From Candidatus Daviesbacteria bacterium GW2011_GWA1_41_61 (lineage in GTDB: Bacteria; Patescibacteriota; Microgenomatia; Daviesbacterales; UBA10151), in assembly GCA_000997385.1 (NCBI GenBank), contig LCBT01000001.1:49707-113706 (forward strand): DNA of 64,000 nucleotides, read 5' to 3'. The notes beneath the pieces were generated by a model. It was not told where the DNA came from, did not search any database, and worked only from the letters and a program-made list of their open reading frames with translations. A program made the translations under genes and the position numbers. Of this stretch, positions 10,644 through 64,000 are shown piece by piece (the stretch's first letter is position 1; each line of letters starts with the position of its first letter).

Positions 10644-10716
10644 GCCAGTGTAGCTTAGAGGAAAAGCGCGACTTTCGTAAAGTCGAAACCGTGGGTTCGA
10701 GTCCCACCACTGGCTC
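10644..10716 (+). tRNA. tRNA-Thr (anticodon CGT)
   Basis: Acceptor GCCAGTG/CACTGGC, anticodon stem CGACT/AGTCG with loop TTCGTAA, T-arm GTGGG-TTCGAGT-CCCAC. Confidence 0.8.
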
Positions 10717-12782: not shown

Positions 12783-12794
12783 GCCAAAATCCAT

Positions 12795-38456: not shown

Positions 38457-38554
38457 CGCTGGTGTCCTTTCTGGGCAGCCCTGTACCACTTACTAAGTTC
38501 GGGTACAGGTTAAAATATCTTGTTAAAAACATAGAGGGTGTATCGACTGGTACA

Positions 38555-46533: not shown

Positions 46534-47643
46534 TTAACCAACTTCATTATAGTAAAAACTATTTATCTTTCCACAGATATAATCAACTTGTTGTATTGTC
46601 ATCTGGGGATGACAAGGCAAAGATAAAATTCTCTTAACAAATTTTTTAGCATTAGGTAGATTTTGACAATTGTAAAAACCCTTTAGAAATAGTTGCTGCG
46701 GAATAAGTAACGGATAGTGAACTGCAACAGGGATATCGCTTTTTTCTAAATAAAGTTTCAACTGATCCCTTTCTCGGGTCTGAATAACAAAAAGATGGAA
46801 ATTCCCTTTTGAATCGCCTGGTGGCTTAATTACCTTTATTTGGGGGAACTTCGACAAATTGTGCATATACCTTAATGCCAACTGCTCTCTTTTGTCATTA
46901 TTTTTATCTAAATTTTTAAGTTTTACTTTTAAAATTGCCGCCTGTATCTCGTCTAATCTGCTGTTAAGGCCATATCTTACATGTTTGTATTTACCTTTTT
47001 GTCCATAATCCCTTATCTGATAGCACAGAGAAGCAAGCTTATTTTTGTTAGTCACAATCGCTCCTCCATCACCCAACCCCCCTAAATTTTTAGTGGGATA
47101 GAAACTGAAGCATCCTAGATCCCCAAAAGTACCGAGTTTACGACTTCTATACTGCGACCCGTGAGCTTGGCAAGCATCTTCGATTAAATAAAGCTTATGT
47201 CTTTTACAAAGGGCCAGAATCTTACTAAGTTCTACAGAATTTCCGTAAAGATGTACGGGGAGAATTACTTTAGTGTGTTTTGTCAAAGCTTGACTAATCT
47301 TATTAGTATCTATTAAACCATCCTCTGTAGTGTCGACAAATACAGGTCTAGCTTTTACAGCAAGTATTGCTAAAGTAGTAGCAACTGCAGATATAGGTGT
47401 GGTTATTACTTCATCCCCTTCCCTAATACCCAAGGCCATCAGGGAAATTTGTAAAGCCTCCAGGCCGTTACCTACACCAATGCAGTGTTTTGCTCCTAGA
47501 TAGTTTGCAAATTCCTTCTCAAATGCTAAAACCTCACGGCCTAAAATATACCAGCCGGAAAACAAAACAGCCTCTACCGCGGCTATGAATTCTTCTTGAT
47601 ATTCCTTAACCTCTTCCTGAAAATTATTAAATTTTATCTTCAT
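46534..47643 (-). CDS. DegT/DnrJ/EryC1-family PLP-dependent sugar aminotransferase (FdtB/QdtB-like)
   Basis: PLP-lysine region SFYPTKNLGGLGDGGAIVTN plus the N-terminal fold. Its stop is 1 nt from the convergent rsmH stop. Confidence 0.85.
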   Translation of the reverse strand: MKIKFNNFQEEVKEYQEEFIAAVEAVLFSGWYILGREVLAFEKEFANYLGAKHCIGVGNGLEALQISLMALGIREGDEVITTPISAVATTLAILAVKARPVFVDTTEDGLIDTNKISQALTKHTKVILPVHLYGNSVELSKILALCKRHKLYLIEDACQAHGSQYRSRKLGTFGDLGCFSFYPTKNLGGLGDGGAIVTNKNKLASLCYQIRDYGQKGKYKHVRYGLNSRLDEIQAAILKVKLKNLDKNNDKREQLALRYMHNLSKFPQIKVIKPPGDSKGNFHLFVIQTRERDQLKLYLEKSDIPVAVHYPLLIPQQLFLKGFYNCQNLPNAKKFVKRILSLPCHPQMTIQQVDYICGKINSFYYNEVG

Positions 47644-48058
47644 TCTGATTCTTTTGTTTAACTAATTTTACGAATTCATTATAATCCCGAATATAATCCT
47701 CTGGTTTATAAACATCTGAGGCAAGAACTAATAAAATCGTGTTTTCTTGAAAATCATGCATTTCATGCCAAATCATTTTATTTAAAAAGATTCCCTCCTC
47801 TGGTTTATCCAAAATAACCTCTTCTCTTCTAATTCCATCATCAAGCACCATTTTAATGTGTCCTTGAATACAAAAAAGAACTTGATGTGTCTGATGATGG
47901 GCATGAAATCCGCGCCCAATTTGTCTTTTAGCCTGAGTAATATAATAAATTCTCTTAATAGAAAAGGGGATATGATCATAATTTTGGGCAAAATAAAGAT
48001 AACAATCATCAAAAATTTTGGGGATAGTAATTAATCTAACCAAGGAATCTCTAATCAT
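47627..48058 (-). CDS. dTDP-sugar 3,4-ketoisomerase, FdtA/QdtA (WxcM-like cupin) family
   Basis: GFHAHHQTHQVLFCIQGHIKMVLDDG...MIWHEMHDF...LLVLASDVYKPEDYIRDYNEF closely parallels the FdtA consensus (RGGHAHK..HQVLIC..DDG..MIWRE..LVLASD.Y...DYIRDYDEF). Confidence 0.75.
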   Translation of the reverse strand: MIRDSLVRLITIPKIFDDCYLYFAQNYDHIPFSIKRIYYITQAKRQIGRGFHAHHQTHQVLFCIQGHIKMVLDDGIRREEVILDKPEEGIFLNKMIWHEMHDFQENTILLVLASDVYKPEDYIRDYNEFVKLVKQKNQNEDKI

Positions 48059-49181
48059 TCAAATCTGTCACCTCTTTGTAAATATCTAACGTTTGTTTAG
48101 CCATTTTACTCCAATCAAACAACTTGTATCTTCTCTCTCCTTTTCTAATTAACTCTTTTCTTAACTTCTCATCAGTTAAAACTCTTTTAATTTTTAAAAC
48201 CATATCCTCTGTGTCTTGTGGATCAAAATAAAAGGCGGCCTCCCCTCCTACTTCCGGCAATGATCCGGCTTTTGAACAAACAACTGGACAACCACTGGCC
48301 ATCGCCTCCAAAAGTGGTATCCCAAACCCCTCTTCCAGAGAAGGAAAAACATAAGCCCTAGCATTTTTATAAAGTACCACCAGCTCTCTATCAGATACCG
48401 GACCAGTAAAAATAACTTCTTTAATTTTAGTTGATTGTTTTAAAAATTTATAAAAATGACTCTCAGGTCCTGATAAAACCAAATTAAGACCAGACCAATC
48501 GTTCTTTAATATAGTGAATGCTTTGATGAGTTGATGAATGTTTTTATGAGGATAAGCATTACCGACATAAAAAAGATAGGGCTTTTTAAAACCAAATTTT
48601 GCAGATAATTTTAGAAAATCTTTTTCACTTAATTCATCTAATAACTTAAGGAAACCTCCTTCAACTCCTTCATAAGTTACCATAATCTTATCTCTTTTTA
48701 CTCTCCACTCGTTTATTAATTGTTCTTTTACAAAGTTGGAGGGAGTGATAATTTTGTCAGATTTACTAAGGGCTTTCAGAAAAATTTTCTCAAAACCAAT
48801 TTTCTTTATTTGATATGTTAAATAATTATGTATCGTGGCCTCTTTAAGTTGAAAATGTTGGTGAATAAGGTCATGAATTGTTACTATATATTGACCGGAA
48901 TAAAAAATAGGGACGTTAAAATGAGGAAAATGAACCACATCTAATTGATATTTTTTAAGTAACGGAGGAAATTTTAATTGTTCAGCAAATCCATACCAAG
49001 GAAAATCTGCCAAGACCGGATGAAAATTACCAGCTAATTTTAAACTATCAAAATCCTCTTTTTGTAAAAAGATGTAATATTGATTTTCCTGATCAATTAG
49101 TTGTAAGTTAGCTATTAAATTACGGATGTATCTGCCAATCCCTGATTGGCGATACATCCTAGCATCTATCCCAATCTTCAT
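48051..49181 (-). CDS. Glycosyltransferase family 4
   Basis: EEGFGIPLLEAMASGCPVVCS. Confidence 0.8.
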   Translation of the reverse strand: MKIGIDARMYRQSGIGRYIRNLIANLQLIDQENQYYIFLQKEDFDSLKLAGNFHPVLADFPWYGFAEQLKFPPLLKKYQLDVVHFPHFNVPIFYSGQYIVTIHDLIHQHFQLKEATIHNYLTYQIKKIGFEKIFLKALSKSDKIITPSNFVKEQLINEWRVKRDKIMVTYEGVEGGFLKLLDELSEKDFLKLSAKFGFKKPYLFYVGNAYPHKNIHQLIKAFTILKNDWSGLNLVLSGPESHFYKFLKQSTKIKEVIFTGPVSDRELVVLYKNARAYVFPSLEEGFGIPLLEAMASGCPVVCSKAGSLPEVGGEAAFYFDPQDTEDMVLKIKRVLTDEKLRKELIRKGERRYKLFDWSKMAKQTLDIYKEVTDLND

Positions 49182-50275
49182 AAGCTATTTCTAAAAATAT
49201 TATGTAATTTTTGAGCAGATTTATCCCAACTGAATCTTTTTAAGTTTTCTCTTCCCCTATCAATAAGCTTTTGCTGTACTTTTTTATCCTTTAAAATTTT
49301 CAAAATCACCGCAGCCATATCTTGGTCATCTTGAGGGTTAAAATATAAAGCTCCTTCCCCGCCTACTTCAGGAAGTGTGGAAGCTTGGCTTACAGCCACC
49401 GGAACATCCATATATTGAGCTTCTAAAATTGGCAAACCAAAACCCTCATAGAGGGAAGGAAAAACAAAAACATCTGCCAGTCCAAAATAATTAGCAAGCT
49501 CTACCTCAGGAATAAATCCACTAACAATTATATCTTTTTTAAATGGATGTTGTTCAATTAACTCTAAAATCTCACTACTTGGCATACCGCCAAGTAATAA
49601 ACGGGCTTCTGTTTTAGTGCGAATTTTTTGAAATGCCGAAAGTAAAACGGGGATGTTTTTATGGGGACGCCATCCCCCAACATAAAATATTACTGGACAA
49701 TGAATGCCCAATTTCTGTTTTAATCTTAACATCTGTTTTCTGTCCTGTTTAAACCTGGAAAAATCTACTCCCAGGGGAATAACTTCAATTTTTTTAGGAT
49801 GAGCTCCTAATCTTTTAACAAACTCATCTTTTCCTATTTGAGTATCTGCCAGTATCTTGTAAGCGCATTTTCCCCCCATCCACAACACCAAAAAGTACCC
49901 CCATTTAAAGACAGGACCTTTTAATAAATTTCCTGGAAATTGTAAATAGGCCAAATCATGGACTGTGGTTATAAATTTCCCTGGATAAAAAATTGGGTGA
50001 TTAAAATTGGGAAAATACATTAAATCTAATTTATGAATCAGAAGTTTTAGGGGAAAAATAAATTGTTCCGACAAACTAAAATGTTTGATATCAACAACCT
50101 CTACCTGAAAATTACTGACATTAAGGTCCCACTCTTCTAAGCCATTCTTTCTTAGAAATACGATATATTTATTTTCTTTATCATATTTTGCCAGCGCTTT
50201 AACTATCCCCTTAGTGTGTTGGGAAAGACCGGCATTGCTACTGTGCCAAAATCTGCCATCAATACCAATCCGCAT
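49178..50275 (-). CDS. Glycosyltransferase family 4
   Basis: YEGFGLPILEAQYMDVPVAVS. Confidence 0.8.
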   Translation of the reverse strand: MRIGIDGRFWHSSNAGLSQHTKGIVKALAKYDKENKYIVFLRKNGLEEWDLNVSNFQVEVVDIKHFSLSEQFIFPLKLLIHKLDLMYFPNFNHPIFYPGKFITTVHDLAYLQFPGNLLKGPVFKWGYFLVLWMGGKCAYKILADTQIGKDEFVKRLGAHPKKIEVIPLGVDFSRFKQDRKQMLRLKQKLGIHCPVIFYVGGWRPHKNIPVLLSAFQKIRTKTEARLLLGGMPSSEILELIEQHPFKKDIIVSGFIPEVELANYFGLADVFVFPSLYEGFGLPILEAQYMDVPVAVSQASTLPEVGGEGALYFNPQDDQDMAAVILKILKDKKVQQKLIDRGRENLKRFSWDKSAQKLHNIFRNSL

Positions 50276-50279
50276 ATCT

Positions 50280-51185
50280 TTATACTTTAAGCTTCCTTTT
50301 AGCTAAGGCCCATCTTAAGTTGATACCAAGGTAGACCAACCAATTTATAAAAAATGGGTAGTCGGCAGCTAAATTTTTTTGATAAAAAATTTTCATTGTT
50401 TCATAAAAAAAGTTGACAGAGCGCAGCCTTGATACAAGATCGGTAGTAGTAAGCTGCTGACTATGTTTCTTGATACCTGAACTAATTCCTTTATAGTGAA
50501 TAATTTTTACTTGTGGCAAGTACACAATTTTATACCCGGCTTTTTTTATTCTAAAGCACAGATCAATATCCTCGGCGTACATATAATAATCTTCATCAAA
50601 CAGTCCTACCTTATCCAGTACCGACTTTCTGGTTAAAATAAACGCCCCAGTTAAACTATCCACTTCATGAGGTTTAGAAAAATCCCGATTACTCAGATGA
50701 TAAAGGCTATCATTTTTAAAAAAATAGTAGAGCAAAGAAGCTAGTGGTGTGGGAAAACCGCGATGGGAAGCCCAATCTAAGGAACCATCAGCCAGTTCTA
50801 CCCGAGGACTAACAGTTCCCACTTGAGGATGCTCTTCCAGATAATCCAACAAAGTCTTAAGTGTTGTGGGAAGTATTTTAGTATCAGGATTGAGAATTAA
50901 GACATATTCACTTTTTACCTTCCGAAGAGCCAAATTGTTACCCTTAGTAAATCCTAAATTATCACCGCTTTGAATATAATTAAATTTAGGAAAAAATCTC
51001 TGGGCTTTTTTCAAACTCTCATCTGATGAATTATTGTCTACCACCCAAATATCTAAATTTGCCTCCTCTTCAACTTCATGCAGAGAATTAAGACATTCAC
51101 TAAGATAATTTCCAGTATTGTAGTTTAAAATCACAACTGACAGGTTTTTTTTAACTGCCATTTTTAACCTCCGTGTAAATACCAT
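50280..51185 (-). CDS. Glycosyltransferase family 2
   Basis: LSVVILNYNTGNYLSECL and DxD-type acidic motifs. Confidence 0.7.
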   Translation of the reverse strand: MVFTRRLKMAVKKNLSVVILNYNTGNYLSECLNSLHEVEEEANLDIWVVDNNSSDESLKKAQRFFPKFNYIQSGDNLGFTKGNNLALRKVKSEYVLILNPDTKILPTTLKTLLDYLEEHPQVGTVSPRVELADGSLDWASHRGFPTPLASLLYYFFKNDSLYHLSNRDFSKPHEVDSLTGAFILTRKSVLDKVGLFDEDYYMYAEDIDLCFRIKKAGYKIVYLPQVKIIHYKGISSGIKKHSQQLTTTDLVSRLRSVNFFYETMKIFYQKNLAADYPFFINWLVYLGINLRWALAKRKLKV

Positions 51186-52344
51186 CTAATTTGTGGGCAA
51201 TTGCTTGATAGGAGTATTTTTCTTCGACCAACTTGCGGGCATTAAGGGCCAGTTTTTTATAAAGATCCTTATTTTGAAGCAACCTAATTGCCAAAGTGGA
51301 TAATTCTTCGGGAGTCCTGCCAACTAAGACTGACTGCCCATCTAGGGCATCAATACCTTCAATACCAATATTGGTAGTCACTACCGGAAGCTTGGCTCCC
51401 ATCGCTCCTAAAATTTTCAACCTGCTGCCTCCCGGACCATATAAGGGGGCTACCAAAATACCGCTTTCCTGATAAGCCTTCTTTACTCCCTTGATATCTT
51501 CAATCTTTAAATCTACAAGTCGGACATTTTCCGCTTTTAAGTTAGCGATCTTTTCGATATGTTGTCCGGCAATTAAAAGTTTCGCTTGAGGAATTTCTTT
51601 TAAAATTGCCGGGAAAAGTTGGGTCACTAAAATTTTAGCTGCCTCAATATTTTGCATCCAATCATAATTGGCCATAAAAAGAATATTTTGGGAAAAGTGC
51701 AGCGGCACCTCTTCCATCAAATCTTCACCAACTCCGTTAGGAACTACCGAAACATTCATTGTAGGACTGGAGACTCTCATTTTTTTAGCATCTGATTCAG
51801 AGACAGCCACTGCCCTAGCAGCTTTGCGCCAGTAATAAGTTTCCCAATATTTTATTTTTAAAACGTCCAGCCAAAGTAAAGGCTTTAAAAACCACCATTT
51901 AAAGGTTTCAACGTAATGCTGGTAAACCTGGTATTCAATAGTTTGATCAACCAACACTACGGGTACGGCAGTATTAGGGATATGGGGAGATACATAGAAG
52001 GTCTCCGCATGAATAATATCAAACTCTTCTTTTTTTAAAATGTCTGCTACACTTCTCTTTTCTTCAGAAGAAAAATTCCTGATGACTAAAAAGGGATTTA
52101 AACTAAAACATGTTTTTAAAATATTCTGTAAAGTCCAAGGTCTCTCTGGCCTTTTAAAAACCCTGACATTTTGACAATATCTTTCCAGTTCTCCAACATA
52201 CTCTGTCTCTTTTTCATACTTTATTAAGGAATAAAGAGTAATTTGATGTTTTTTAGAAAGTTGTTTGATCAAATTATAAGAACGTATTTGCCCTCCTGAA
52301 GAAGGAGGATAAGGTAGATATGGCGTAAGCATTAATATCTTCAT
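51151..52344 (-). CDS. Glycosyltransferase family 4-like (GT-B)
   Basis: N-terminal MKILMLTPYLPYPPSSGGQIR and a C-terminal GT-B Rossmann domain. Confidence 0.65.
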   Translation of the reverse strand: MKILMLTPYLPYPPSSGGQIRSYNLIKQLSKKHQITLYSLIKYEKETEYVGELERYCQNVRVFKRPERPWTLQNILKTCFSLNPFLVIRNFSSEEKRSVADILKKEEFDIIHAETFYVSPHIPNTAVPVVLVDQTIEYQVYQHYVETFKWWFLKPLLWLDVLKIKYWETYYWRKAARAVAVSESDAKKMRVSSPTMNVSVVPNGVGEDLMEEVPLHFSQNILFMANYDWMQNIEAAKILVTQLFPAILKEIPQAKLLIAGQHIEKIANLKAENVRLVDLKIEDIKGVKKAYQESGILVAPLYGPGGSRLKILGAMGAKLPVVTTNIGIEGIDALDGQSVLVGRTPEELSTLAIRLLQNKDLYKKLALNARKLVEEKYSYQAIAHKLDGIYTEVKNGS

Positions 52345-52347
52345 CGC

Positions 52348-53862
52348 TTATTTTAAATCTTTGGGTGCAGTATATTCAGGTTTTGGCCGGGTTAAGTCCA
52401 AAATTATAAATTGGGGTGTTTGGGATATAATCTCATACTGTCCCATCAGAGATTTGGTATCGGCATCTAAACTTACGGAAACATAATGAGTCACTCCATA
52501 CATCTTCTTTAAGTTATCCACAGAGGAGACCATCACCGGAAATCCCGGCCGGTTAACTTGATACAAAAAAGCGGTATCCCCGCCATAAGGAGCTACCACT
52601 ACCGCCTCTTTAGGTAAAATTTTATCAGCAAACCGGCCGGCTTCAACAATAGCCCAGTTATTAACTTGAAATAGACCTTTCACTTCCAGCCATCCTAGAT
52701 ATATTGTCAGAAATAATAATAACATGGCCAAAGGAATAGTCACTAAACGTGGCAGAAAATTTCCCACACCCCGCAGCAGCAAGACAACCCCCCGGGCAGT
52801 AAAAATTGATAAAGCGGGAATAATAAAAGTCTGATAGTAATCATGCATGACATTACCAGTGGCAAAAACCACTAAAAATAACAATGAAGAAGCTAAAAAG
52901 AGATGTAAAATGTAACCTTCCCGGATATTTGGTTTAATTAATGACCCCAAGGCAAAAAGGACTGATCCCGCCACTGTCAGAATTTCCCGGCCGAATCTAT
53001 CTCCGACAATCCATTTCCAAAAAGCCGGCCTAAACCTAATGCCGTTACCATTGAACAGCCAGTTGGAAGCCGGAATGCCATCCGGGTATTGGTTAATCCA
53101 TATCCTCCAAGCCACAATAGGCCAAAAAGATAAAATAATCCACAAGAAGTATCTTTTAGGGATCGGCCAAATCTGGCCTTCCTTTTGCCAGTAAGAAAGA
53201 ATCAGCGGCAAAAGGTAAAAAGCAGCCATCGGTTTAGTTAGAAAAGCTACAGCTGTAAAAAATACGCTGCCCAAAAAGAGCTTACGGCTATTTTCGAAGA
53301 TCCAGCGCTCAGTAAAATAAAACATTCCTAAGGAGAAAAAAACCAATGATGGTTCAGGTAAAATAACCCGGGAAAAATAAATATTAAAAGGCAATACGGC
53401 AAAAATAAAGGCTGATAGGAGGGCTGTAAAATAATCCCAATGCCTTTTGGTAATCAAGTAGATAAAAACCAATGAACCCAAAGACATAAAAATGGAGACT
53501 AACCGGGCCAAACGTTCATCAACCCCTCCGTTTAACAGATAAAGGAAATAAACTAAGCTGTTATAGATCGGAAGTTCCACAAAGCGCAGACGTCTTAAAT
53601 TCGGGTTGTCTTTACCCATCGGTGACATATCATCACCCCGGGGCATTAGAGGAGTAAAACCTTCCTTGTAAAAATTCCTGGCTACAGCTGCTGTGTCAGC
53701 TTGTCTCCAGGAATGCCAGTCAGCCACCGGATTATCAATTTTATAAAATCTGACCCCAAAAGCGACGAAAATAATAAGGACCAACCAAAACAAATGGCTT
53801 TTTAATAACTTAATTAAATATAAACTGAGTACCTTAAGCATTACCGGACTTCTCATGATCAT
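52348..53862 (-). CDS. GT-C fold membrane glycosyltransferase (ArnT/PMT-like)
   Basis: 504 aa with at least 11 TM helices. A first periplasmic loop with acidic/aromatic residues (DWHSWRQADTAAVARNF) and a C-terminal soluble domain. Confidence 0.5.
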   Translation of the reverse strand: MIMRSPVMLKVLSLYLIKLLKSHLFWLVLIIFVAFGVRFYKIDNPVADWHSWRQADTAAVARNFYKEGFTPLMPRGDDMSPMGKDNPNLRRLRFVELPIYNSLVYFLYLLNGGVDERLARLVSIFMSLGSLVFIYLITKRHWDYFTALLSAFIFAVLPFNIYFSRVILPEPSLVFFSLGMFYFTERWIFENSRKLFLGSVFFTAVAFLTKPMAAFYLLPLILSYWQKEGQIWPIPKRYFLWIILSFWPIVAWRIWINQYPDGIPASNWLFNGNGIRFRPAFWKWIVGDRFGREILTVAGSVLFALGSLIKPNIREGYILHLFLASSLLFLVVFATGNVMHDYYQTFIIPALSIFTARGVVLLLRGVGNFLPRLVTIPLAMLLLFLTIYLGWLEVKGLFQVNNWAIVEAGRFADKILPKEAVVVAPYGGDTAFLYQVNRPGFPVMVSSVDNLKKMYGVTHYVSVSLDADTKSLMGQYEIISQTPQFIILDLTRPKPEYTAPKDLK

Positions 53863-56129: not shown

Positions 56130-56133
56130 CTTT

Positions 56134-56739
56134 TTAATCTTTTAAGGCTTTAAGAAAAAGTTTATATATTAAAACCGCTGCCAGCCAGATACCCGTATAA
56201 ACCAGAACTCTTCCCAGGATATTAGTAGGATAGAACCTAACAGTCGCTTTGGAATTAAAAAACAGCTCTTCTCCCACCCCGTTGTTTCTAACAATAATAT
56301 GATTACCTGTAAAATCACTCCCGCGGTTATAAATTCTATTTTCTACTTCCGGCTCATAACCGTTGACAAAAAACGATTCTCTTAAAGGATAAACATATTC
56401 TTCCAAAAAAGTACTCTCTTGCTGATCCCGAATGTATTGATAGGCATATTCCGGAGGATGATTTAAAGTCAGCGGCGGTAAAATTCTCCCAAAAATATGG
56501 AGGCTGGCAAATTTTTGTTTGTAATAATCAGTAATATAGTCTCTTCTAAAATCCGAAAAATAGGCTGCAATATTAGGGTTCTGGATAGTGTCCCCTTCTA
56601 AGGTTGACTTCAGCGAGGGGGTGAGTGGAGGAAAATCCTCTATTTTAGTGGGGCCGGGCAAGATAAGGTAAACCAGGCCCAAGATAAAAATTAAACTTAA
56701 AATCTTTCTTTTCATTTCCGCAGGAAAGAACTTGTTCAT
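56134..56739 (-). CDS. Hypothetical membrane protein (N- and C-terminal TM helices, 201 aa)
   Basis: [15 protein letters not shown] and [18 protein letters not shown] hydrophobic segments. No family assigned. Confidence 0.45.
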
Positions 56740-57386
56740 TGAAAAAGCCTGGCTCGGCCCAGCTTATAATGAAGATCTTTTAACTGTCTTTCCCCAATCA
56801 CCTTGGCCGGAACCCCACCCACAATGGCAAAATCTGGTACATCTTTGGTGACCACTGCCCCGGCAGCGATTATTGCCCCGAAACCCACTTTTACCCCCGG
56901 CAGGATAATAGATTTGGGGCCAATAAATACATAATCGCCAATTTCAACGGGTGCATTAATAGGCTGAAAATCCTCAGTATTAATATCATGTTCTGAGTTA
57001 TAAATCATCACCTCAGAAGCAATGTCAGTATAGTTACCAATCTTTAATCTTTCCCGGCCATCCAGAAAAGCATTTTGGCCCACAATGGTTCCTTCCCCAA
57101 TTTCCACCCCAGCTGGATTAAAAAACTGCGTCCCAATATGCAGATGGGATTTTTTACCAATCTTTACCCCAGCCAAACGGTAAAAAAACCATCTAATAGT
57201 ATAAATAGGAATAATACCAACTAAGCGAAGAAAGAGTAGCTCAAAATCTAAAAAGTAGTTATAAAAACGGTCAATAATCTTTCTTACAGCAGTAGTCAAA
57301 TCTAAAGATCTTCCCATTCTATCCTTAAAAACAATAGTAGGAATCCCTTTATTCAACCTTATTTGAACATTATCTGAAAACAACAT
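56736..57386 (-). CDS. Hexapeptide-repeat (LbH) acetyltransferase, candidate N/O-acetyltransferase for the FdtA/FdtB product
   Basis: LbH repeats [31 protein letters not shown] and an N-terminal hydrophobic segment. Confidence 0.65.
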
Positions 57387-57395
57387 CTGGATTAA

Positions 57396-58331
57396 TTATA
57401 CTTGAGTTTGGTTAAAAATACTAAATACTTCCTCATCTGTTAATTTTGCCTGAGCCTTTTCTATTTTCCTTTTGGATAAAATTTGTGGTAGCCTTTTTAA
57501 AGCTGATAAAAAGATTTTACTGTATCCTGGATGCTTCAGTAATCTAAGCACTAAGGTCTTTTGATGATCTGAAATTAACTTTTGACTGGTAATATTTTTC
57601 CAAGTAAAGATCAAAAGGTTTCTTTCAGCAGTTTGAGATACTATTTTTTGAGAATAATTTGTTTCAATTACTCCTGGCTCTTTATAATGTTCCACTAAAC
57701 TTTTGGGTTCCCAAAGATTGATATAGCCTCTTTTCCAGGCTCTATAGCCCAAATCTAGGTCTTCCAAATAGAAAGGATCATAGAGAGTATCTAAACCTCC
57801 CATCTCATCCCATAAACTCTTACGGAATACTCCACTCCCCCCTGAAACCCACAAAGTTATATGCGCTTTAGCCTCACAGGTGGACGTCTTTCGTGCCTGA
57901 TCGTGCCAGAAGAAGCCATCATGAAAAGTAGCTGTGGCCCAAAGCCCTCCGGTGTTACAACCGACGCTAAAAACCTTAGGATCATCAAAGTGAGATAAAA
58001 TTGGCTTAAGAAAATCTTTTGAAGGGGCAGCATCAGTATTAAAAAGTACTATCAAATCACCCTTGGCCTCCCTTACCCCCTTATCAACATTAGAAGAAAA
58101 ACCTAAATTCCTTTCAATCTTACTTTCTAAAACCACCACCTCTTTGAACTGGGATTTTACAATTTTTAGACTATCATCGGTAGAGGCATCATCTGACATA
58201 ATTATTTCCTCTACCTGGCTAAATTTTGTTGCCTTAAGTACCCTGGGTAAATTTCTTTGCAGCTTTTCTGCACCATTCCAATTAGGAATTACTATTGATA
58301 TTTTCATTTTAATTATTCGCGACTTCTTCAA
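57396..58331 (-). CDS. Glycosyltransferase family 2
   Basis: KISIVIPNWNGAEKLQRNL and DDASTDDS. Confidence 0.7.
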   Translation of the reverse strand: MKKSRIIKMKISIVIPNWNGAEKLQRNLPRVLKATKFSQVEEIIMSDDASTDDSLKIVKSQFKEVVVLESKIERNLGFSSNVDKGVREAKGDLIVLFNTDAAPSKDFLKPILSHFDDPKVFSVGCNTGGLWATATFHDGFFWHDQARKTSTCEAKAHITLWVSGGSGVFRKSLWDEMGGLDTLYDPFYLEDLDLGYRAWKRGYINLWEPKSLVEHYKEPGVIETNYSQKIVSQTAERNLLIFTWKNITSQKLISDHQKTLVLRLLKHPGYSKIFLSALKRLPQILSKRKIEKAQAKLTDEEVFSIFNQTQV

Positions 58332-59451
58332 ATACCTTTAAAACCTGTCTGGCCATCTTCTCCCAAGAAAATTTTTTGGCCTGTCGAAGCCCCTCTTTAG
58401 ATTTTTCCATTCTCAACCTTTTATCAAAAGCTAAAACCCGGATAGATTGCTCTATCTGCTCTGTATTATAAGGATCAACTAAAATCCCGGCTGAGCCCAC
58501 AACCTCGGGCAAAGATGAAACATTAGAAACAATCACCGGAGTACCACAGGCCATGGACTCTAAAGCCGGAATCCCAAAGCCCTCCCACAAAGAAGGAAGG
58601 AGAAAAACTTGGGCTCCACCAATTAGATAAGGCAAATCTTCATCAGGCACAAAACCTGTAAAAACTACTTTCTCTTCAATCCCCAACTCTTTAGGTTTTC
58701 TTAAAATCTCTTCAAACATCCAAGCCTGTCTTCCTAAACCAGTGGTTTTTCCCACTACCACCAGCTTTAATTGATCAATATTTTTGAAAGCTTCAATCAA
58801 ACGGACTAAATTTTTCCGGGGTTGAACTGTACCAATAAAAATAGCGTAATTACCGATAATTTTATATTTGTCTTTAATCTGATCAATCTGGGCTTTATTT
58901 TTAAAATGGTGGAAACTGGCTGAGTTGTAGCCTGGATAAGCAATGGTAATTTTATCTTTATTAATACCATAATATTTAATGATATCATCCCGGGAGGATT
59001 TAGATATGGTAATAATACGATCGGCTTGCATCAGTGATATCTTAGTCCAAAGTCGCATCTGATAAAGATCCTGGGGCTTAAAAAACTGCGGAAAACGCAA
59101 ATAGGCAAGGTCAAAGATCATCATCACCCTGGGAACTGGAGACACCACCGGAGCATAGTGGGTAGGAGAAAAAAAGAGGTTAGGTTTCTCCTTAGCCGTA
59201 AAAAGTATCCAGGGCAAAACGAGATATGTTTTAAACTTGTTAAATTTTAATATTTTATATTTCCAGCCAGGTCTCTCTTTAGGCAAGTCATCCATAGGAG
59301 GACCGGCTAAAATAACGGTGTAGTTATTTTTCTGATCAATCTTCTCCAGATTTCTTAACAGCTCAAAAGCTACCTGAGATGAACCCAATCTTTGAGGAAC
59401 ATTTGCTTCATATCCGTCAATCCAAATTTTTAAATTAGCCAGTTGGGACAT
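58309..59451 (-). CDS. Glycosyltransferase family 4
   Basis: WEGFGIPALESMACGTPVIVSN. Confidence 0.8.
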   Translation of the reverse strand: MSQLANLKIWIDGYEANVPQRLGSSQVAFELLRNLEKIDQKNNYTVILAGPPMDDLPKERPGWKYKILKFNKFKTYLVLPWILFTAKEKPNLFFSPTHYAPVVSPVPRVMMIFDLAYLRFPQFFKPQDLYQMRLWTKISLMQADRIITISKSSRDDIIKYYGINKDKITIAYPGYNSASFHHFKNKAQIDQIKDKYKIIGNYAIFIGTVQPRKNLVRLIEAFKNIDQLKLVVVGKTTGLGRQAWMFEEILRKPKELGIEEKVVFTGFVPDEDLPYLIGGAQVFLLPSLWEGFGIPALESMACGTPVIVSNVSSLPEVVGSAGILVDPYNTEQIEQSIRVLAFDKRLRMEKSKEGLRQAKKFSWEKMARQVLKVFEEVANN

Positions 59452-59471
59452 ACTTAATAATATTATTTAGA

Positions 59472-60485
59472 TTATCTAACCAAATCCCTATAAACAGAAG
59501 CTGTCTGATGAGCACATCTTTTCCAGGAAAACTTTTTAACCTGCTGAAAACCTTTATCAATCATATCATCTCTTATCTGTTTGTCATTCATTGCTGCCTT
59601 CAGCTTCTTTTTTATATCCTCAACATCCTCCGGGTCAACATAAAAGGCAGCCTCTCCTCCCACTTCCGGCATACTGGATAGATTAGAAGTAATTACCGCT
59701 GTTCCGCAAGCCATAGCTTCCAAGATCGGCAAACCGAAACCCTCATAAAAAGATGGATAGAGTAACACTTTGGCAGCTGAATATAAAAGCGGCATCTGAT
59801 CATCAGACAAGTAGGGTAAATCCTGGCCACTAATAACCAGATTGTACTCTTTAGCTGCTTCTTTTACCCTTTCTAAATTTCTTCTTTCCCCTACTCCGCC
59901 AATAGCTAAAACAAATTCCTTGGGCAGATGATACTTACTTCTAAACTCCTTTATTTCTTTTTCATTTTGAGGCTGGAAATGTTCTCCTGCTGCCTCGTAA
60001 ACGACGATTATCTTCTCATTTGGGATCTGAGAAATTTCCATCAAATCTTTTTTGGTGGCTTCAGAAACCGTAATGACAATATCAATTTCTTTTTCTACCA
60101 GTTGCAACCTTCTTTTATGAACTGCTACAACTTTAGGATGGGACCACTGAGGATATTTTAAAGGAATGACATCATGATAAGTAGTAACCTTTTTAGCTTT
60201 GGTTTTGGGCTGCAGCCAGTCGCTGCTGTGAAAGATATCTAAAGGACCAATAAACTTTTCGATAGGGATAACTCTTAACCGGTTAAATAAAATCTCAGCC
60301 AGCGTGGGAGGAATTTTAAAAGACTTTACTCCTTTCAAATTACCTTTATAGCTCTTGCGTAAAGAGGTATAAAAAAAGACCATCTGAAGATCGGCAAGGC
60401 TACTCAACTCCTGGGCTAAATTCTTAGTATAAGTTGCCACCCCTCCGTGGTGAGCTGTTTGGGAGATATCAAATCCAACCTTCAT
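59472..60485 (-). CDS. Glycosyltransferase family 4
   Basis: YEGFGLPILEAMACGTAVITSN. Confidence 0.8.
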   Translation of the reverse strand: MKVGFDISQTAHHGGVATYTKNLAQELSSLADLQMVFFYTSLRKSYKGNLKGVKSFKIPPTLAEILFNRLRVIPIEKFIGPLDIFHSSDWLQPKTKAKKVTTYHDVIPLKYPQWSHPKVVAVHKRRLQLVEKEIDIVITVSEATKKDLMEISQIPNEKIIVVYEAAGEHFQPQNEKEIKEFRSKYHLPKEFVLAIGGVGERRNLERVKEAAKEYNLVISGQDLPYLSDDQMPLLYSAAKVLLYPSFYEGFGLPILEAMACGTAVITSNLSSMPEVGGEAAFYVDPEDVEDIKKKLKAAMNDKQIRDDMIDKGFQQVKKFSWKRCAHQTASVYRDLVR

Positions 60486-60499
60486 CTAATCTAATTGTA

Positions 60500-62023
60500 T
60501 CAGAATTTAAAGTTGTAGAAATCCAGTTGATCTTTTTGATCTTTGGTTAAAGTGGGTACCTTTTCTTTTAAAACCATCAATTTTGTCTCTTGGCCATCTC
60601 TGGTTAATTTGACATACCTTAGGAAATACTCTTCTAAACCAAAATACCCCCATTTACAATCACAATATAAATAAGTAGGTGGGGTTTGGGCAAAAATTTG
60701 ATATAAGGGATCTCTAATCTGGGGTACTTTGCTCATCCAGGCATAGTAGTTAACCATTACCGAAGCGTGATCAATATCCGCCTGCCAATAAATCAGCCAT
60801 TCATCTGGTACCACCATTAACTTTTCCCCGGGGGTTTTCATGATTTTAACAGCTTGGCCAAAATCAGTCTGCCGGGAATAGTTAATATAAAAATCTTTAT
60901 TAATATCATAAGTTGCAAACAAAGATCCTTGAGCTTCTTTTACCGTAACCGACAAAGCTCCTATTAATAAAATCGTACCTGAAAGCTGCCACCGCCTTAC
61001 CTGATAACTTTTCCAGACAATAAAAGTAGTTATCGCTGCCATTAATATTAAAGAAGCAAACCAGGGGAGGAGATGAAAACCGGAATAAGTTTGCTGGCCA
61101 GGCATAACGTATCTTATATTAATCAGGCCCAAAGCTAAAAACATCAAAATTACTAACTTCCATTGTTTTTTTGTCAACATTAAACCCCAATTTAAAATTA
61201 ACAGCCCGGATAGAAATTGAGTTACTTGTAAAGTAGCGCTTCTTCCTTCCCAGGATAGTAGAGACAAAAAAGGGGTAAAAAAAGCTGCCAGAGCAGTTTG
61301 AGTTAAAGGTGGCTGACCAGACAGCGGGATATAATATTTAAAATTAATATAGAAAACATCATTAAAATAGGCGGCGGGAGTCATAAAAAGTAAACTTACT
61401 GCTAAAAGCGGTAAAGACCCTAAAAAAAATGGTAACAAGTCTGAAATCAAAAGCTTCTTTTGCCACAAAAGCATCCCGAAAAGAAAGATCGTCGCTGGCC
61501 AGAGCGGGGCAAGGAGTAACCAAGTTAGTATAAAACAAAAACCTAAAAATACGCTTTCATATTTTGTCGGCGGATGATGGGATAAGAAAGCCCAACTTAA
61601 AAGATAAACTAAAGGATAAACTACCAAAGATTCTGATAAAAAAAGATTTCCCAAAAGAAAAATTTTCAGCGGTTCAAAAATTATTACCGTCAGCAGCATG
61701 GGTAAACCAAATCTTGCCACTAAAAAGATTGACCAGGCTGCAGCCCAAAAAATTACTGCCTCACGGTGCCTTTTAATTAGTAAAAAGATCGAGTTTGGTG
61801 AAGTTAACTTTTGCACCCCGGCGCTAAAAACATAAGATAAGGGTTGATGGTGGGAAAACAGATCTTCATATAATTTTTCTCCCTGCAGCAGATATTTCCC
61901 CAACACTAGGTTGTCCTCCTCGTCTACAAAGTGGAAAGATAAAGCCTGGTTTTGATAAGAGCGTGAGGTAATAAGTAAGACTACTAAAGTAGCTAAGATG
62001 ATTAAAATTTTATGGACATTCAT
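60500..62023 (-). CDS. Polytopic membrane protein, probable GT-C-type glycosyltransferase
   Basis: 507 aa with about 11 TM helices. Acidic DEED motif in the first extracytoplasmic loop (HFVDEEDNLVLGKY) and a C-terminal soluble domain. Confidence 0.4.
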   Translation of the reverse strand: MNVHKILIILATLVVLLITSRSYQNQALSFHFVDEEDNLVLGKYLLQGEKLYEDLFSHHQPLSYVFSAGVQKLTSPNSIFLLIKRHREAVIFWAAAWSIFLVARFGLPMLLTVIIFEPLKIFLLGNLFLSESLVVYPLVYLLSWAFLSHHPPTKYESVFLGFCFILTWLLLAPLWPATIFLFGMLLWQKKLLISDLLPFFLGSLPLLAVSLLFMTPAAYFNDVFYINFKYYIPLSGQPPLTQTALAAFFTPFLSLLSWEGRSATLQVTQFLSGLLILNWGLMLTKKQWKLVILMFLALGLINIRYVMPGQQTYSGFHLLPWFASLILMAAITTFIVWKSYQVRRWQLSGTILLIGALSVTVKEAQGSLFATYDINKDFYINYSRQTDFGQAVKIMKTPGEKLMVVPDEWLIYWQADIDHASVMVNYYAWMSKVPQIRDPLYQIFAQTPPTYLYCDCKWGYFGLEEYFLRYVKLTRDGQETKLMVLKEKVPTLTKDQKDQLDFYNFKF

Positions 62024-63435
62024 CGCTCTAAAAGTTTAATTAAGCCCACCCCGTAAAAATTATAGACATCTGATATCTTCCATCCCAAATTCGCCAACTT
62101 TTTTTCCAACAGCCTTTGAGGATCAGTTATCTCAACTAAATATTCAAAGACATAGACTTGCTCCTTATCAATTAAAATTTTTTCCAAATCGACCACATCA
62201 TCATCAGTCTTCGCTTCCACTCTTTTTAAACCGGGATAAGAGTTAGCTAAGTTCGGCTGATAGTATAAATAAGGGAATTTCACATGGTTATCTTCAAATA
62301 ACACCACAGATCTTTCATTTAACCTTTGATTTAAAAAATTAGCTGCCCCTCTCCAATCTTCCCTTTGAAACTGAGGGTTAGTGTAATAAATGCTTAAAAA
62401 AATTAAACTGCTTAAAACTACCACCCCTAAAGCCAACCTAAAAAATTGCAAGGGTAAAGAAAATATACCCCGAGCAATTAGCAGGTAAAAGGCTGGCAAA
62501 ATAAAGATCATTCTAAAATAAGAAAGCATGGGGATAAAAGGTGAAATTAACACTGCCAAAACTATTGGGATGATCATCCAGGCCGTTAAAAACTTAATGG
62601 TCTTGTCAGTTTTTCTAAAGGAAAGCCATAATATTACTCCATAAAAAAAGGCCATTAAGATAGAGATGCCACCATAAACAATTTTGTTATCAAAACTAAT
62701 CCTGCCAAAAACAGTCTTTATAAAAACTAAAGCTAGATTTTTCAGATCTGCTCCACCAGCTACTCTCTTCCAACCCGGCAAGTTTAAGGCAGCCTCCTTT
62801 CCTTCCAAAAACTGTTGGAAAAAAACTGTTAGCCACGGTGAGAAAATTAAAAAGGAAAGACTCAAAGAAAGCAGCCATTTTTTTAAGATCTTAGATCTAA
62901 TCCATAGTAGAAAAATTAGATGGGCTGGAAAAATTAAATAAGTTACATAATCAGAAGATAGAACCAACAGAGAACTGAAGGTATATCCGACAGTCGACCA
63001 TTTTTTATTATTTACAAGTTGGAGCAAAAAATAAGATAAAACAGCCACACTAAAAGCTGACAAAGAATACATTCTAGCTTCCTGAGAATAATAAACATGC
63101 AATGGAGCTGAAGCTAAAAAGAAAGCTGCCAAAAGAGCAACATTTTTAGAAAAAAGCTCTTTTCCTAAAAGGTAGGTTAAAAAAACTGTCCCTATTCCCA
63201 GCAGGATCGAAGGAAGTCTGACTACAGCTTCAGAAAAGCCAAAAAGATGAGACCAGACCCAAAGTAAAATAAAAAAACCCGGAGGATGATAATCACCAAT
63301 AGGATACTTGGTGATAAAAGAGACAAAATCCAGCATCTTGGCTGCCACGACATTATCAGCCTCATCCAGCCATAAAGATTGATTAATCGTAATCAGCCTT
63401 AGAATTAGGGCAATCGTTAAAACTATCCAAATCAT
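62020..63435 (-). CDS. GT-C fold membrane glycosyltransferase (ArnT/PMT-like)
   Basis: 471 aa, polytopic. Conserved DE motif after TM1 (LWLDEADNVVAAKM) as in polyprenyl-P-sugar-utilising GT-C enzymes. Confidence 0.5.
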   Translation of the reverse strand: MIWIVLTIALILRLITINQSLWLDEADNVVAAKMLDFVSFITKYPIGDYHPPGFFILLWVWSHLFGFSEAVVRLPSILLGIGTVFLTYLLGKELFSKNVALLAAFFLASAPLHVYYSQEARMYSLSAFSVAVLSYFLLQLVNNKKWSTVGYTFSSLLVLSSDYVTYLIFPAHLIFLLWIRSKILKKWLLSLSLSFLIFSPWLTVFFQQFLEGKEAALNLPGWKRVAGGADLKNLALVFIKTVFGRISFDNKIVYGGISILMAFFYGVILWLSFRKTDKTIKFLTAWMIIPIVLAVLISPFIPMLSYFRMIFILPAFYLLIARGIFSLPLQFFRLALGVVVLSSLIFLSIYYTNPQFQREDWRGAANFLNQRLNERSVVLFEDNHVKFPYLYYQPNLANSYPGLKRVEAKTDDDVVDLEKILIDKEQVYVFEYLVEITDPQRLLEKKLANLGWKISDVYNFYGVGLIKLLER

Positions 63436-64000
63436 CGGTATTTTTGTTCACCTAAAAAAGACTTAAGAAGAGAAATTTCTATGGCTAAATCATAGACCAT
63501 CTTAAAAATAAAAAAATGCCATAAAGTAAACTTAACACTTTTATAAACGCCATAAAATAAAGACAAAGGGAAGCTATAACGGATTAAAACTACCAGTCTC
63601 ATCCAATTTTCGTTGCTGATTTTCCTTTTTTTAAATTCGCTTTTGCCAATCCATCTGGCTTGCCGGTAAATCTCTGTCAAGCTTTCCGGGTTGCGGTGAT
63701 AGAAAACCGCCCCCGGGGCCAAAACAGCTAAAACCCCCAGCTTATCGGCTAATGTATGATCGTCAACATAACCAATTGTTTCAAACCCGTCAACTTTAGC
63801 AAATTCCTTTTTTAAAATAGCCCGGAAAACAGTTTGTCTGGCAGGATAATTTTTAGGGTGCATTCTATCTTCAGGTAAATTACGGTTGATATTCCAGCAT
63901 TTACTCCAAACATTGTCCTTATTTAAAACATATTCTTCTTTACTAAATGTACCGATAGTATTCCCTTCCCTAATGGGTCCTATTAATCGTTCAATAAATT
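63432..64000 (-). CDS. Polyprenyl-phosphate sugar synthase-like GT2 (GtrB/ArnC/DPM1-like), C-terminal part only (5' end outside the window)
   Basis: The frame stays open upstream of the ATG at 63863 up to the window end. The C-terminal region has a charged juxtamembrane helix (EIYRQARWIGKSEFKKRK) followed by two TM helices, as in GtrB-type enzymes. Confidence 0.45.
   Translation of the reverse strand, partial: FIERLIGPIREGNTIGTFSKEEYVLNKDNVWSKCWNINRNLPEDRMHPKNYPARQTVFRAILKKEFAKVDGFETIGYVDDHTLADKLGVLAVLAPGAVFYHRNPESLTEIYRQARWIGKSEFKKRKISNENWMRLVVLIRYSFPLSLFYGVYKSVKFTLWHFFIFKMVYDLAIEISLLKSFLGEQKYR

Follow-up and report, generated by a model that had tools for sequence, protein, structure and literature searches.

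The DNA under study is a 64,000-nucleotide stretch of the genome of Candidatus Daviesbacteria bacterium GW2011_GWA1_41_61, called the window throughout, which carries a dense string of glycosylation genes from position 46534 to its end. All positions refer to the window unless a contig is named. Between 46534 and 64000 we found 16 complete open reading frames (ORFs) on the minus strand and one more whose reading frame is still open at the window end, in agreement with the 17 packed genes of a preliminary description made from the sequence. Neighbouring genes of this array overlap by up to 35 nt or are separated by up to 20 nt, with overlaps (4–35 nt) at ten junctions. According to Pfam scans and predicted folds the products comprise five family 4 glycosyltransferases (GT4), four family 2 glycosyltransferases (GT2; one of them partial), one left-handed β-helix (LbH) acetyltransferase and three candidates for polytopic glycosyltransferases of the GT-C fold. 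The six GT4 counted earlier were one too many, and the earlier list named 18 proteins where there are 17 genes.

This string of 17.5 kb forms the central part of an envelope-glycan assembly locus of approx. 32.7 kb, which the earlier coordinates had cut at both ends. In the window genome the full locus consists of 28 co-directional genes and an inverted rsmH gene. It encodes seven GT4, five GT2, five GT-C proteins (and a 912-aa candidate for a further one), one protein with the WaaL/Wzy fold, one priming phosphoglycosyltransferase (PGT) and one flippase.

The array beyond position 64000 was read from public contigs identical to the window, using the Pfam hits precomputed for them. The exact 471-aa GT-C protein encoded close to the window end is present on 23 public contigs, including those of the NCBI assemblies GCA_000994095.1 and GCA_000994545.1 and groundwater-metagenome contigs, which we take to belong to the Rifle aquifer assemblies of the Candidate Phyla Radiation (CPR). 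One such contig (L004) is 100% identical to the window across 11,981 nt. Nine genes continue the array on the same strand, separated by gaps of at most 8 nt or overlapping. They encode, in order, a GT2 (284 aa), a GT4 (338 aa), a PMT_2 protein (462 aa), two S-adenosylmethionine (SAM) methyltransferases (275 and 208 aa), a polytopic protein of 912 aa, a second PMT_2 protein (509 aa), a GT2 (283 aa) and a Polysacc_synt protein (435 aa). The 435-aa product matches Polysacc_synt and Polysacc_synt_3 and is encoded in the same co-directional string, approx. 9.2 kb past position 64000. From these family matches it is predicted to be a Wzx-type flippase of the multidrug/oligosaccharidyl-lipid/polysaccharide (MOP) superfamily. 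Its orthologues in the relatives L007 and L008 (48–53% identity) score 85 and 82 bits to Polysacc_synt. The 5' boundary of the locus was set from the relative L009, in which the genes upstream of Wzx lie on the opposite strand, so that Wzx heads the array there.

At the other end the priming enzyme that Wzx/Wzy assembly calls for is encoded at 43755–44525, contiguous with the array in the relatives L010 and L011. This gene for a polyprenyl-phosphate PGT of the small Bac_transf type (256 aa, one hydrophobic helix, minus strand) scores 206 bits to Pfam Bac_transf, and 260 and 238 bits to the NCBIfam models EPS_sugtrans and WbaP, both under their cutoffs. It is followed by a gene for a DUF4012 protein (41843–43750, minus strand; 635 aa, 86.9 bits), which has one N-terminal transmembrane (TM) helix and a large extracytoplasmic part. 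The DUF4012 gene is the last gene of the locus and a conserved partner of the PGT; downstream of it we found RecO and then a class II tRNA synthetase, probably the glycyl enzyme. A GT4 gene (44522–45583, minus strand; 353 aa, Glycos_transf_1 77 bits) overlaps the PGT gene by 4 nt.

Both ends bear on the central claim of the preliminary description, namely that the locus has no exporter and no Wzz. The statement is true for the exporter inside the window, but it is a window-edge artefact, because the identical contigs continue the array to the Polysacc_synt gene. An exporter beyond the window was what the preliminary description itself had named as speaking against its interpretation. Such a gene is present, and the PGT–DUF4012 pair lies 2 kb beyond the other end of the string. 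The part on Wzz stood: no Wzz or other polysaccharide co-polymerase (PCP) that could regulate chain length was detected in the scanned window ORFs, nor did the Pfam hits precomputed for the extension and for the relatives' loci include one.

Conservation of the gene order

Synteny in related genomes, which had been proposed as a check, was compared in five relatives (L007–L011), most of whose lineages are Daviesbacteria or Patescibacteria. The gene order is kept in all of them, with orthologues at 33–68% amino-acid identity. The two more distant genomes, a 764-kb contig (ERZ27297427:k119_905664; L010/L012) and Daviesbacteria GCA_030650035.1 (L011/L013), each carry one uninterrupted co-directional array that extends from the gene of the 912-aa family and Wzx through GT4, PGT and DUF4012 to RecO. 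The order in both is 912-aa family, Wzx, GT2, methyltransferase, GT-C (462), GT4, GT2, GT-C (471), 507-aa family, GT4 and a variable gene, followed by GT4, GT2, Hexapep, 201-aa family, GT2, Wzy_C, PMT (504), GT4, GT2, GT4, GT4, Bac_transf, DUF4012 and RecO. The variable gene, located between the GT4 genes designated GT4e and GT4d, encodes either a PMT_2 protein of 582 aa or a 444-aa protein. We concluded that the PGT–DUF4012 pair belongs to the locus, because the uninterrupted array of the relatives contains both genes. The gene order is thus conserved between lineages, unlike that of strain-variable O-antigen and capsule loci.

Compared with L010 and L011 the window genome has four extra genes: a GT4 (49178–50275), FdtA, a DegT aminotransferase and the inverted rsmH. 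For FdtA and DegT there is no counterpart in L010 or L011. The GT4 has no positional orthologue there and is the best match to none of their genes. By this comparison FdtA, DegT and the GT4 are additions specific to the window genome, and the amino-sugar branch is accessory to the locus and not part of its core. The preliminary description had made the FdtA/DegT pathway its headline feature; the genes are indeed present, but as an accessory insertion.

One of the five relatives, L008 (CAYMZD010000003.1), in which the proteins of the locus are 35–66% identical to those of the window, is labelled 'uncultured Gammaproteobacteria bacterium' and is probably a mis-binned or mislabelled CPR contig.

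The rsmH (mraW) gene (45618–46532, plus strand; Methyltransf_5 345 bits) encodes a 16S rRNA methyltransferase and interrupts the array while standing outside the pathway, with a 1-nt gap to the DegT gene and a 34-nt gap to the start of the GT4. It is not in its usual place after mraZ in the division and cell wall (dcw) cluster, and sits inverted in the glycan locus. At the same junction rsmH is absent in L010 and L011, and L011 has a 148-aa reverse-strand ORF there. If the glycan array were read through at this point, the transcript would run antisense to rsmH. Promoter and terminator scans did not give terminators around rsmH above shuffled expectation, and no match was obtained in the glycan region with Rfam and tRNA scans. 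The dcw cluster for peptidoglycan synthesis and division follows after a few kb, likewise on the minus strand, and runs from mraZ (38061–38489, minus strand) via ftsI (35928–37646, minus strand), the mur ligases, mraY, ftsW, murG and ftsA to ftsZ at 25077. This cluster is complete. Two genes of the SEDS family (FtsW/RodA) are present in the window, at 21041–22120 and 29702–30847, and an isoleucyl-tRNA synthetase gene (22129–25038) is inserted between ftsZ and the rodA-like gene.

Enzymes of the locus

In the description that follows, all genes are on the minus strand and identities refer to the orthologues in the relatives, chiefly L010 and L011. The GT4 at 44522–45583 (50–55%) stands immediately before the PGT (66–67%), and DUF4012 (54–58%) directly after it. 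Four genes on the far side of rsmH, starting with DegT and FdtA, lead to the first GT2. They include a GT4 conserved in the relatives (48051–49181; 376 aa, Glycos_transf_1 131 bits, 49–56%) and the accessory GT4 (49178–50275; 365 aa, Glycos_transf_1 100 bits). Then come a GT2 (50280–51185; 301 aa, Glycos_transf_2 86.5 bits, 54–58%), a GT4 (51151–52344; 397 aa, Glyco_trans_1_4 59.6 bits, 49%) and a GT-C of PMT_2/PMT type (52348–53862; 504 aa, PMT_2 40.5 bits and PMT 31.4 bits, polytopic by hydropathy, 52–59%). The WaaL/Wzy-fold protein (53834–55264) is followed by a GT2 with one C-terminal hydrophobic helix by hydropathy (55239–56129; 296 aa, Glycos_transf_2 74.9 bits), a 201-aa protein (56134–56739) and the LbH acetyltransferase (56736–57386; 216 aa, Hexapep 53 bits, 60–65%). 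Next are a GT2 of 311 aa from a TTG start, 303 aa in public gene calls (57396–58331; Glycos_transf_2 70.6 bits, 50–56%), and two GT4 (58309–59451; 380 aa, Glycos_transf_1 126 bits, 54–62%; and 59472–60485; 337 aa, Glycos_transf_1 88.5 bits, 59–67%). The string ends with a GT-C-fold protein of a family that has no Pfam entry (60500–62023; 507 aa, polytopic), a PMT_2-type GT-C (62020–63435; 471 aa, PMT_2 61.3 bits, 33–52%) and the partial GT2 (63432–64000), whose C-terminal 188 codons stay open to the window end and overlap the 471-aa gene by 4 nt. On the identical contigs this GT2 is 284 aa long in full (L001, 9150–10004) and carries PF00535. Profile searches, the other check proposed at the outset, back the assignments of DegT, FdtA, GT4, GT2 and two of the PMT_2 proteins; for Wzy_C the backing comes through homologues and fold.

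The three polytopic GT-C proteins described earlier are borne out, two of them by Pfam PMT_2 and the 507-aa protein by its predicted fold. With the 462-aa and 509-aa proteins beyond position 64000 the set rises to five. The 507-aa protein has no Pfam or NCBIfam match. Its homologues (n = 171) lack Pfam domains without exception, and the organism names that their sources supply are all either Patescibacteria/CPR or 'uncultured bacterium'. With HMMER, run in full against 1.84 billion cluster representatives, 957 family members were obtained at E ≤ 1e-3. The protein has approx. eight or more hydrophobic helices and the motif HFVDEEDN in its first loop, of which F32, D34 and E35 are invariant in an alignment of 46 sequences. 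Its AlphaFold2 model has a mean predicted local distance difference test score (pLDDT) of 94.5. When this model was compared with the PDB by Foldseek the 15 best matches were all GT-C proteins (probability 0.98–1.0, template modelling score approx. 0.45), among them ALG9, STT3/PglB/AglB, Pmt4, AftA, AftB, AftD, ALG3, EmbA/B and Pmt1/2. We concluded from the modelled fold that the 507-aa protein is a predicted GT-C enzyme of an uncurated family.

An Asp-containing motif just after the first TM helix (TM1) is kept in each GT-C family: DWHxWRQADTA, QSxWLDEA, YKD..PY.P, FDQARD and HFVDEEDN. The first of these is the first-loop motif conserved in the orthologues of the 504-aa protein, and QSxWLDEA is conserved in five orthologues of the 471-aa protein. 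Neither of these two PMT_2 proteins had a sequence match in the PDB. The preliminary description counted four GT-C paralogues in the window by including the polytopic product of 2484–3920. The four proteins show no significant pairwise BLASTP similarity beyond a 53-residue stretch, and we rejected the idea that they are recent or close paralogues. The 2484–3920 protein itself reached PMT_2 only below threshold (24.0 bits against 26.1) and has EDE after TM1. It adjoins a protein of the APH/Kdo-kinase family (1343–2338), and an APH-family gene also occurs inside the glycan locus of L008 (11965–12756); such neighbours hint at glycan phosphorylation.

The 912-aa protein (L001, 2577–5315) may be a sixth GT-C, of AftD/YfhO-like type, judging by its topology and an invariant GDAP motif after TM1. 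Orthologues of approx. 860–910 aa were found in L007, L008, L009, L012 and L013. In this family the N-terminal part has approx. ten TM helices, SWGDAPYFY is invariant after TM1, and the remainder comprises a large extracytoplasmic domain and an anchor at the C-terminus. Its family matches are weak (NCBIfam MmpA 29.9 bits against a cutoff of 210; Pfam Golvesin_C marginal at 17.3 bits), its profile had no sequence match in the PDB, and the 507-aa family showed no significant similarity to it when the two profiles were compared (probability 10%).

The polytopic protein at 53834–55264 (476 aa) had been described as resembling Wzy_C proteins and O-antigen ligases, and this held. The protein itself is below threshold for Pfam Wzy_C (26.2 bits, cutoff 31.7), whereas 36 of 39 aligned homologues match it, and its more than 3000 homologues carry the NCBI name 'O-antigen ligase family protein'. 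A sequence profile of the family found no PDB chain. The AlphaFold2 model (pLDDT 79.6) is closest in the PDB to the WaaL ligase 7TPG (E 4.7e-6, template modelling score 0.57/0.65), followed by the SEDS proteins FtsW and RodA. The family motif reads ATDN[D/G]xLRSLGETGLLG, and the family has an Asp (D381) where a His would be expected for WaaL-type proteins. CPR bacteria are monoderm and have no lipopolysaccharide (LPS), and an acceptor other than lipid A-core is therefore expected. On the basis of the model we assign the protein to the WaaL/Wzy fold, which would fit a ligase, a polymerase or an O-oligosaccharyltransferase alike. The chances that it transfers a finished glycan to a non-LPS envelope acceptor seem to us about even, and polymerisation of the glycan is a somewhat less probable role. 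The slight lean towards en-bloc transfer comes from the lack of a detected Wzz/PCP and from the 13 cytoplasmic steps, which are many for one repeat unit.

The preliminary description correctly counted four GT2 genes in the string, the last of them partial, but took the last one to be GtrB-like. No TM helix is predicted for the full-length GT2 of 284 aa. In the PDB it comes closest to chondroitin synthase, GalT1 and 5TZE/5TZ8, the match to GtrB (5EKP) amounts to 35 bits and covers the N-terminal 110 residues only, and the NCBIfam models ArnC and PgfS give 49–54 bits against cutoffs of approx. 500. We therefore rejected a GtrB-like assignment and regard the protein as a generic GT2. The situation is similar across the locus: its GT2 proteins score 20–54 bits to the same models, PDB matches to GtrB, ArnC or DPMS are confined to the N-terminal approx. 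110 residues (the generic GT-A half) or absent, as in the GT2 at 55239–56129, and the two C-terminal TM helices were seen in none of them. These enzymes could still act as polyprenyl-phosphate-sugar synthases, since synthases without TM helices exist. Two GT2 genes stand directly upstream of GT-C genes, the 284-aa gene before the 471-aa gene (4-nt overlap) and the 283-aa gene before the 509-aa gene (8-nt gap), and by position these two are candidates for GT-C donor synthases. The 283-aa protein is weakly similar (26–29 bits) to GmaR and SunS, GT2 enzymes that glycosylate proteins. ORFs resembling GtrA were not observed in the window.

The two amino-sugar genes overlap each other and were identified as described earlier. 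The DegT gene (46534–47643; 369 aa, DegT_DnrJ_EryC1 367 bits) encodes a protein that has QdtB 3FRK (288 bits) among its best PDB matches. Other top matches, including 2OGA (DesV), 5U1Z and WbpE, are sugar 3-aminotransferases as well. The scores to the 4-aminotransferases ArnB and perosamine synthetase are approx. 150 bits. The DegT protein thus groups by sequence with the sugar 3-aminotransferases and is predicted to be an FdtB/QdtB-like enzyme acting on a nucleotide sugar. FdtA (47627–48058; 143 aa, Pfam FdtA 146 bits) is a putative dTDP-6-deoxy-hex-4-ulose 3,4-ketoisomerase, its best PDB match being the 3,4-ketoisomerase 2PA7 (122 bits, RGFHAH aligned). With a GC content of 0.30 its gene is the lowest in the locus.

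Only one of two LbH acetyltransferases claimed earlier was found. The nearest types to the protein at 56736–57386 are WcaF and maltose O-acetyltransferases (89 bits to the NCBIfam WcaF family, under the cutoff). Because its gene belongs to the conserved core and is also present in relatives without FdtA and DegT, it is unlikely to be an FdtC specifically. This sole LbH enzyme is O-acetyltransferase-like, and a dedicated N-acetyltransferase of FdtC/QdtC type was not recognised in the locus. The 201-aa protein at 56134–56739 was rejected as a second LbH enzyme: it has no Pfam or NCBIfam match and no hexapeptide repeats, and hydrophobic segments lie at both its ends by hydropathy. Its orthologues (48–56% identity) always stand directly after the Hexapep gene.

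Indels relative to window positions 53071–53109, 59691–59759 and 63460–63553 were observed in the same-population assemblies L001 and L002, all of them in transferase genes. GCA_000994095.1 has a 37-nt deletion that splits the 504-aa GT-C. In GCA_000994545.1 the 462-aa GT-C is split, and 69 nt are deleted from a GT4 gene and 94 nt from the gene of the 284-aa GT2. Either the indels are genuine variants within the population that knock out surface-glycan genes, or they stem from errors of assembly.

Elsewhere in the window a second, small glycosylation island (12144–17782) lies on both strands with a GC content of 0.30–0.33, against approx. 0.39. It contains genes for a GT64/GT2-like protein, Hexapep, GT4, NUDIX, GT2, a 329-aa unknown protein and GT4, and may represent a surface-sugar cassette that is variable or was acquired horizontally. 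A BRO-N domain protein (7244–8119) is encoded between tRNA-Gly (6110–6183) and tRNA-Thr (10644–10716); the BRO-N family is usually tied to phages and mobile elements.

Assembly pathway and its alternatives

We consider it likely that the locus encodes an envelope glycan pathway based on a lipid carrier, presumably undecaprenyl diphosphate (Und-PP), of the Wzx/WaaL-Wzy type and with an unusually large extracytoplasmic GT-C stage. Gene content, families and folds, contiguity with flippase and PGT, and the gene order in the relatives are observations; from these we infer in which order the steps occur, which donors, lipid carrier and acceptor are used and where the polymer is located. The PGT at 43755–44525 would prime polyprenyl phosphate, presumably undecaprenyl phosphate (Und-P). 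Up to 12 cytoplasmic GT4 and GT2 enzymes would then extend the lipid-linked glycan, which the O-acetyltransferase-like LbH enzyme and the two SAM methyltransferases could decorate. In the window genome only, a dTDP-3-amino-3,6-dideoxyhexose made by FdtA and the QdtB-like aminotransferase would be added. The Wzx-type MOP flippase would carry the lipid-linked material to the outer face, where the five GT-C enzymes, and possibly the 912-aa protein as a sixth, would add sugars from polyprenyl-phosphate-sugar donors. Finally the WaaL/Wzy-fold protein would transfer the finished glycan to a non-LPS acceptor, or polymerise it.

Several points weigh against this pathway. Of the window genome's own Wzx, only precomputed Pfam hits and a C-terminal fragment of 142 residues were available; metagenome contigs contained no exact match to 54 nt of its gene, and a protein search with the 142-aa fragment gave a single match, a relative at 61% identity. 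The only MOP flippase could instead export Und-P-sugar donors, like the flippase of the multidrug and toxic compound extrusion (MATE) family described in PMC11127046. The opposite-strand rsmH splits DegT from GT4, PGT and DUF4012, so that separate transcription may occur in the window genome. Neither a Wzz/PCP nor a ligase of the LytR-CpsA-Psr (LCP) type, a GtrA-type flippase or a recognisable polyprenyl-phosphate-sugar synthase was detected in the window and the 10-kb extension, and therefore the GT-C donors and the final attachment step are unaccounted for. RmlA and RmlB, which must act before FdtA, are not encoded in the window: no nucleotidyltransferase or 4,6-dehydratase match was detected in the scanned window ORFs or the 10-kb extension, and both genes may be located in another part of the genome. 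Thirteen cytoplasmic transfer steps are large for a single repeat unit, and more than one product may be made. The whole reconstruction is built on sequence and predicted structure.

The preliminary description had proposed a system without exporter: polyprenyl-phosphate sugars would be the product of a GtrB-like GT2, ArnT/PMT-like GT-C enzymes would place single sugars on S-layer or pilin proteins or on an existing polymer, and no Und-PP oligosaccharide would be formed. The number of GT-C proteins (three in 46534–64000, five in the whole locus), the GT2 genes directly before the 471-aa and 509-aa GT-C genes and the resemblance of the 283-aa GT2 to GmaR and SunS would suit such a system. Against this, the Wzx-type flippase, the PGT and the WaaL/Wzy-fold protein all stand in the same conserved array, the seven GT4 would be left without a role, and the window has neither a GtrA-like gene nor a candidate target protein. 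Moreover, no GT2 resembles GtrB, ArnC or DPMS beyond the N-terminal half, reaches an NCBIfam cutoff or carries two C-terminal TM helices. We therefore regard the exporter-less system as very improbable. It remains reasonable, as that proposal has it, that GT-C enzymes of a small-genome bacterium modify a surface glycoconjugate outside the membrane; S-layer or pilin glycosylation may occur, but nothing in the locus points to it directly. Protein glycosylation could also proceed in another way, as a general O-linked system that builds a long Und-PP oligosaccharide and transfers it en bloc to S-layer proteins, pilins or other surface proteins, the WaaL-fold protein acting as an O-oligosaccharyltransferase of PglL/WsaB type. 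The Wzy_C/WaaL fold is shared with O-oligosaccharyltransferases, and lipid A-core is not expected as acceptor in the monoderm CPR. The earliest description of the FdtA pathway reportedly concerned the S-layer glycan of Aneurinibacillus thermoaerophilus, and 2PA7 is the best PDB match of FdtA. The lack of a detected Wzz/PCP points the same way, and 13 cytoplasmic steps suit a non-repeating oligosaccharide better than a repeat unit. However, no S-layer or pilin gene was found next to the locus in the window or in the relatives, the fold does not separate a ligase from a polymerase or an O-oligosaccharyltransferase, and both the dcw adjacency and the PGT–DUF4012 pair point to a wall or exopolysaccharide-type product (PMC5412050). 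O-linked protein glycosylation is in our view unlikely.

The locus could also be a mosaic of at least two co-located pathways, one for a Wzx/Wzy heteropolysaccharide and one for a polymer or lipoglycan built by GT-C enzymes, comparable to lipomannan/lipoarabinomannan (LM/LAM) or arabinan, with the Polysacc_synt protein possibly flipping Und-P-sugars. Seven GT4, five GT2 and five to six GT-C proteins exceed the usual need of one product, and the fold matches of the 507-aa protein include AftA, AftB, AftD and Emb. Accessory insertions occur at fixed junctions (the 582-aa PMT_2 or 444-aa gene between GT4e and GT4d; FdtA/DegT in the window genome), and MOP/MATE flippases carry Und-P-sugars in three-component systems (PMC11127046). 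On the other hand, one order, one strand and overlapping genes at just 33–68% identity argue for a single functional unit, and there is only one priming enzyme and one flippase. A mosaic seems quite improbable to us, and we prefer the single lipid-carrier-based pathway set out above.

That pathway resembles several known systems in part. Gram-positive Wzx/Wzy loci, such as the exopolysaccharide (EPS) cluster of Bifidobacterium longum 105-A with its priming glycosyltransferase, DUF4012 and Wzz (PMC5412050), share with it a Bac_transf gene beside DUF4012, many GT4 and GT2, an acetyltransferase, Polysacc_synt and a protein of the Wzy_C superfamily. In the B. longum cluster, too, the DUF4012 gene adjoins the priming glycosyltransferase (PMC5412050), and the DUF4012 family has been noted as common to CPR and Gram-positive bacteria (PMC6744442). 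The Daviesbacteria locus differs in that no Wzz/PCP or tyrosine-kinase module was found, in its five to six embedded GT-C genes and unusually many cytoplasmic transferases (12), and in an order that is constant across species-level lineages and not strain-variable. Three-component systems (GtrA/GtrB/GtrC; CsbB/YfhO; MATE with GT136, PMC11127046; reviewed in PMC8035078) share polytopic GT-C proteins with a first-loop Asp and presumably polyprenyl-phosphate-sugar donors, a GT2 gene directly upstream of a GT-C gene and a MOP-type flippase, which in Daviesbacteria may carry either the Und-PP-glycan or an Und-P-sugar. Unlike these systems, the Daviesbacteria locus has no recognisable synthase of GtrB, ArnC or DPM1 type and no GtrA was found; it holds five to six very divergent GT-C proteins in one array instead of one each, and they are placed inside the main assembly locus and not in a separate cassette. 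The pathway to dTDP-D-Fuc3NAc and Qui3NAc (RmlA, RmlB, FdtA/QdtA, FdtB/QdtB, FdtC/QdtC) has in common with the locus the FdtA-type ketoisomerase and the QdtB-like aminotransferase with overlapping genes, whereas RmlA and RmlB are not in the window and a dedicated N-acetyltransferase was not recognised in the locus.

Mycobacterial and corynebacterial arabinogalactan and LM/LAM synthesis, and the eukaryotic ALG pathway, likewise have a cytoplasmic phase of GT-A/GT-B enzymes on a polyprenyl carrier, a flip and then several GT-C steps, and the 507-aa protein matches ALG9, Pmt4, AftA/B/D and Emb in fold. There is no orthology at the sequence level, and the final enzyme in Daviesbacteria has the WaaL/Wzy fold and is not of the STT3 type or an LCP ligase. 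A rather unlikely, further-reaching possibility is that an ALG-like logic is a core-genome trait of a CPR lineage: one large lipid-linked oligosaccharide would be made in approx. 13 cytoplasmic steps, flipped, completed by five to six different GT-C enzymes, the Pfam-less 507-aa family among them, and transferred en bloc by the WaaL-fold protein to a non-LPS acceptor (wall, lipid or protein). If this were true, the cells would carry a conserved glycoconjugate in their envelope, with a possible role in the episymbiotic lifestyle.

The literature searched contained no account of this locus, nor of CPR loci rich in GT-C genes. The genomes of CPR/Patescibacteria are approx. 1 Mb in size and their envelopes chemically uncharacterised, and the lineage described here keeps approx. 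30 kb for one glycan pathway; in one relative the locus takes up at least 28 kb, approx. 3.7% of the 764-kb contig. The locus offers a Pfam-less GT-C family, a very conserved WaaL-fold protein with a presumed non-LPS acceptor and the recurrent PGT–DUF4012 pair as targets. The conserved gene order suggests that the envelope polymer is important to the cells, perhaps for host attachment or phage resistance.

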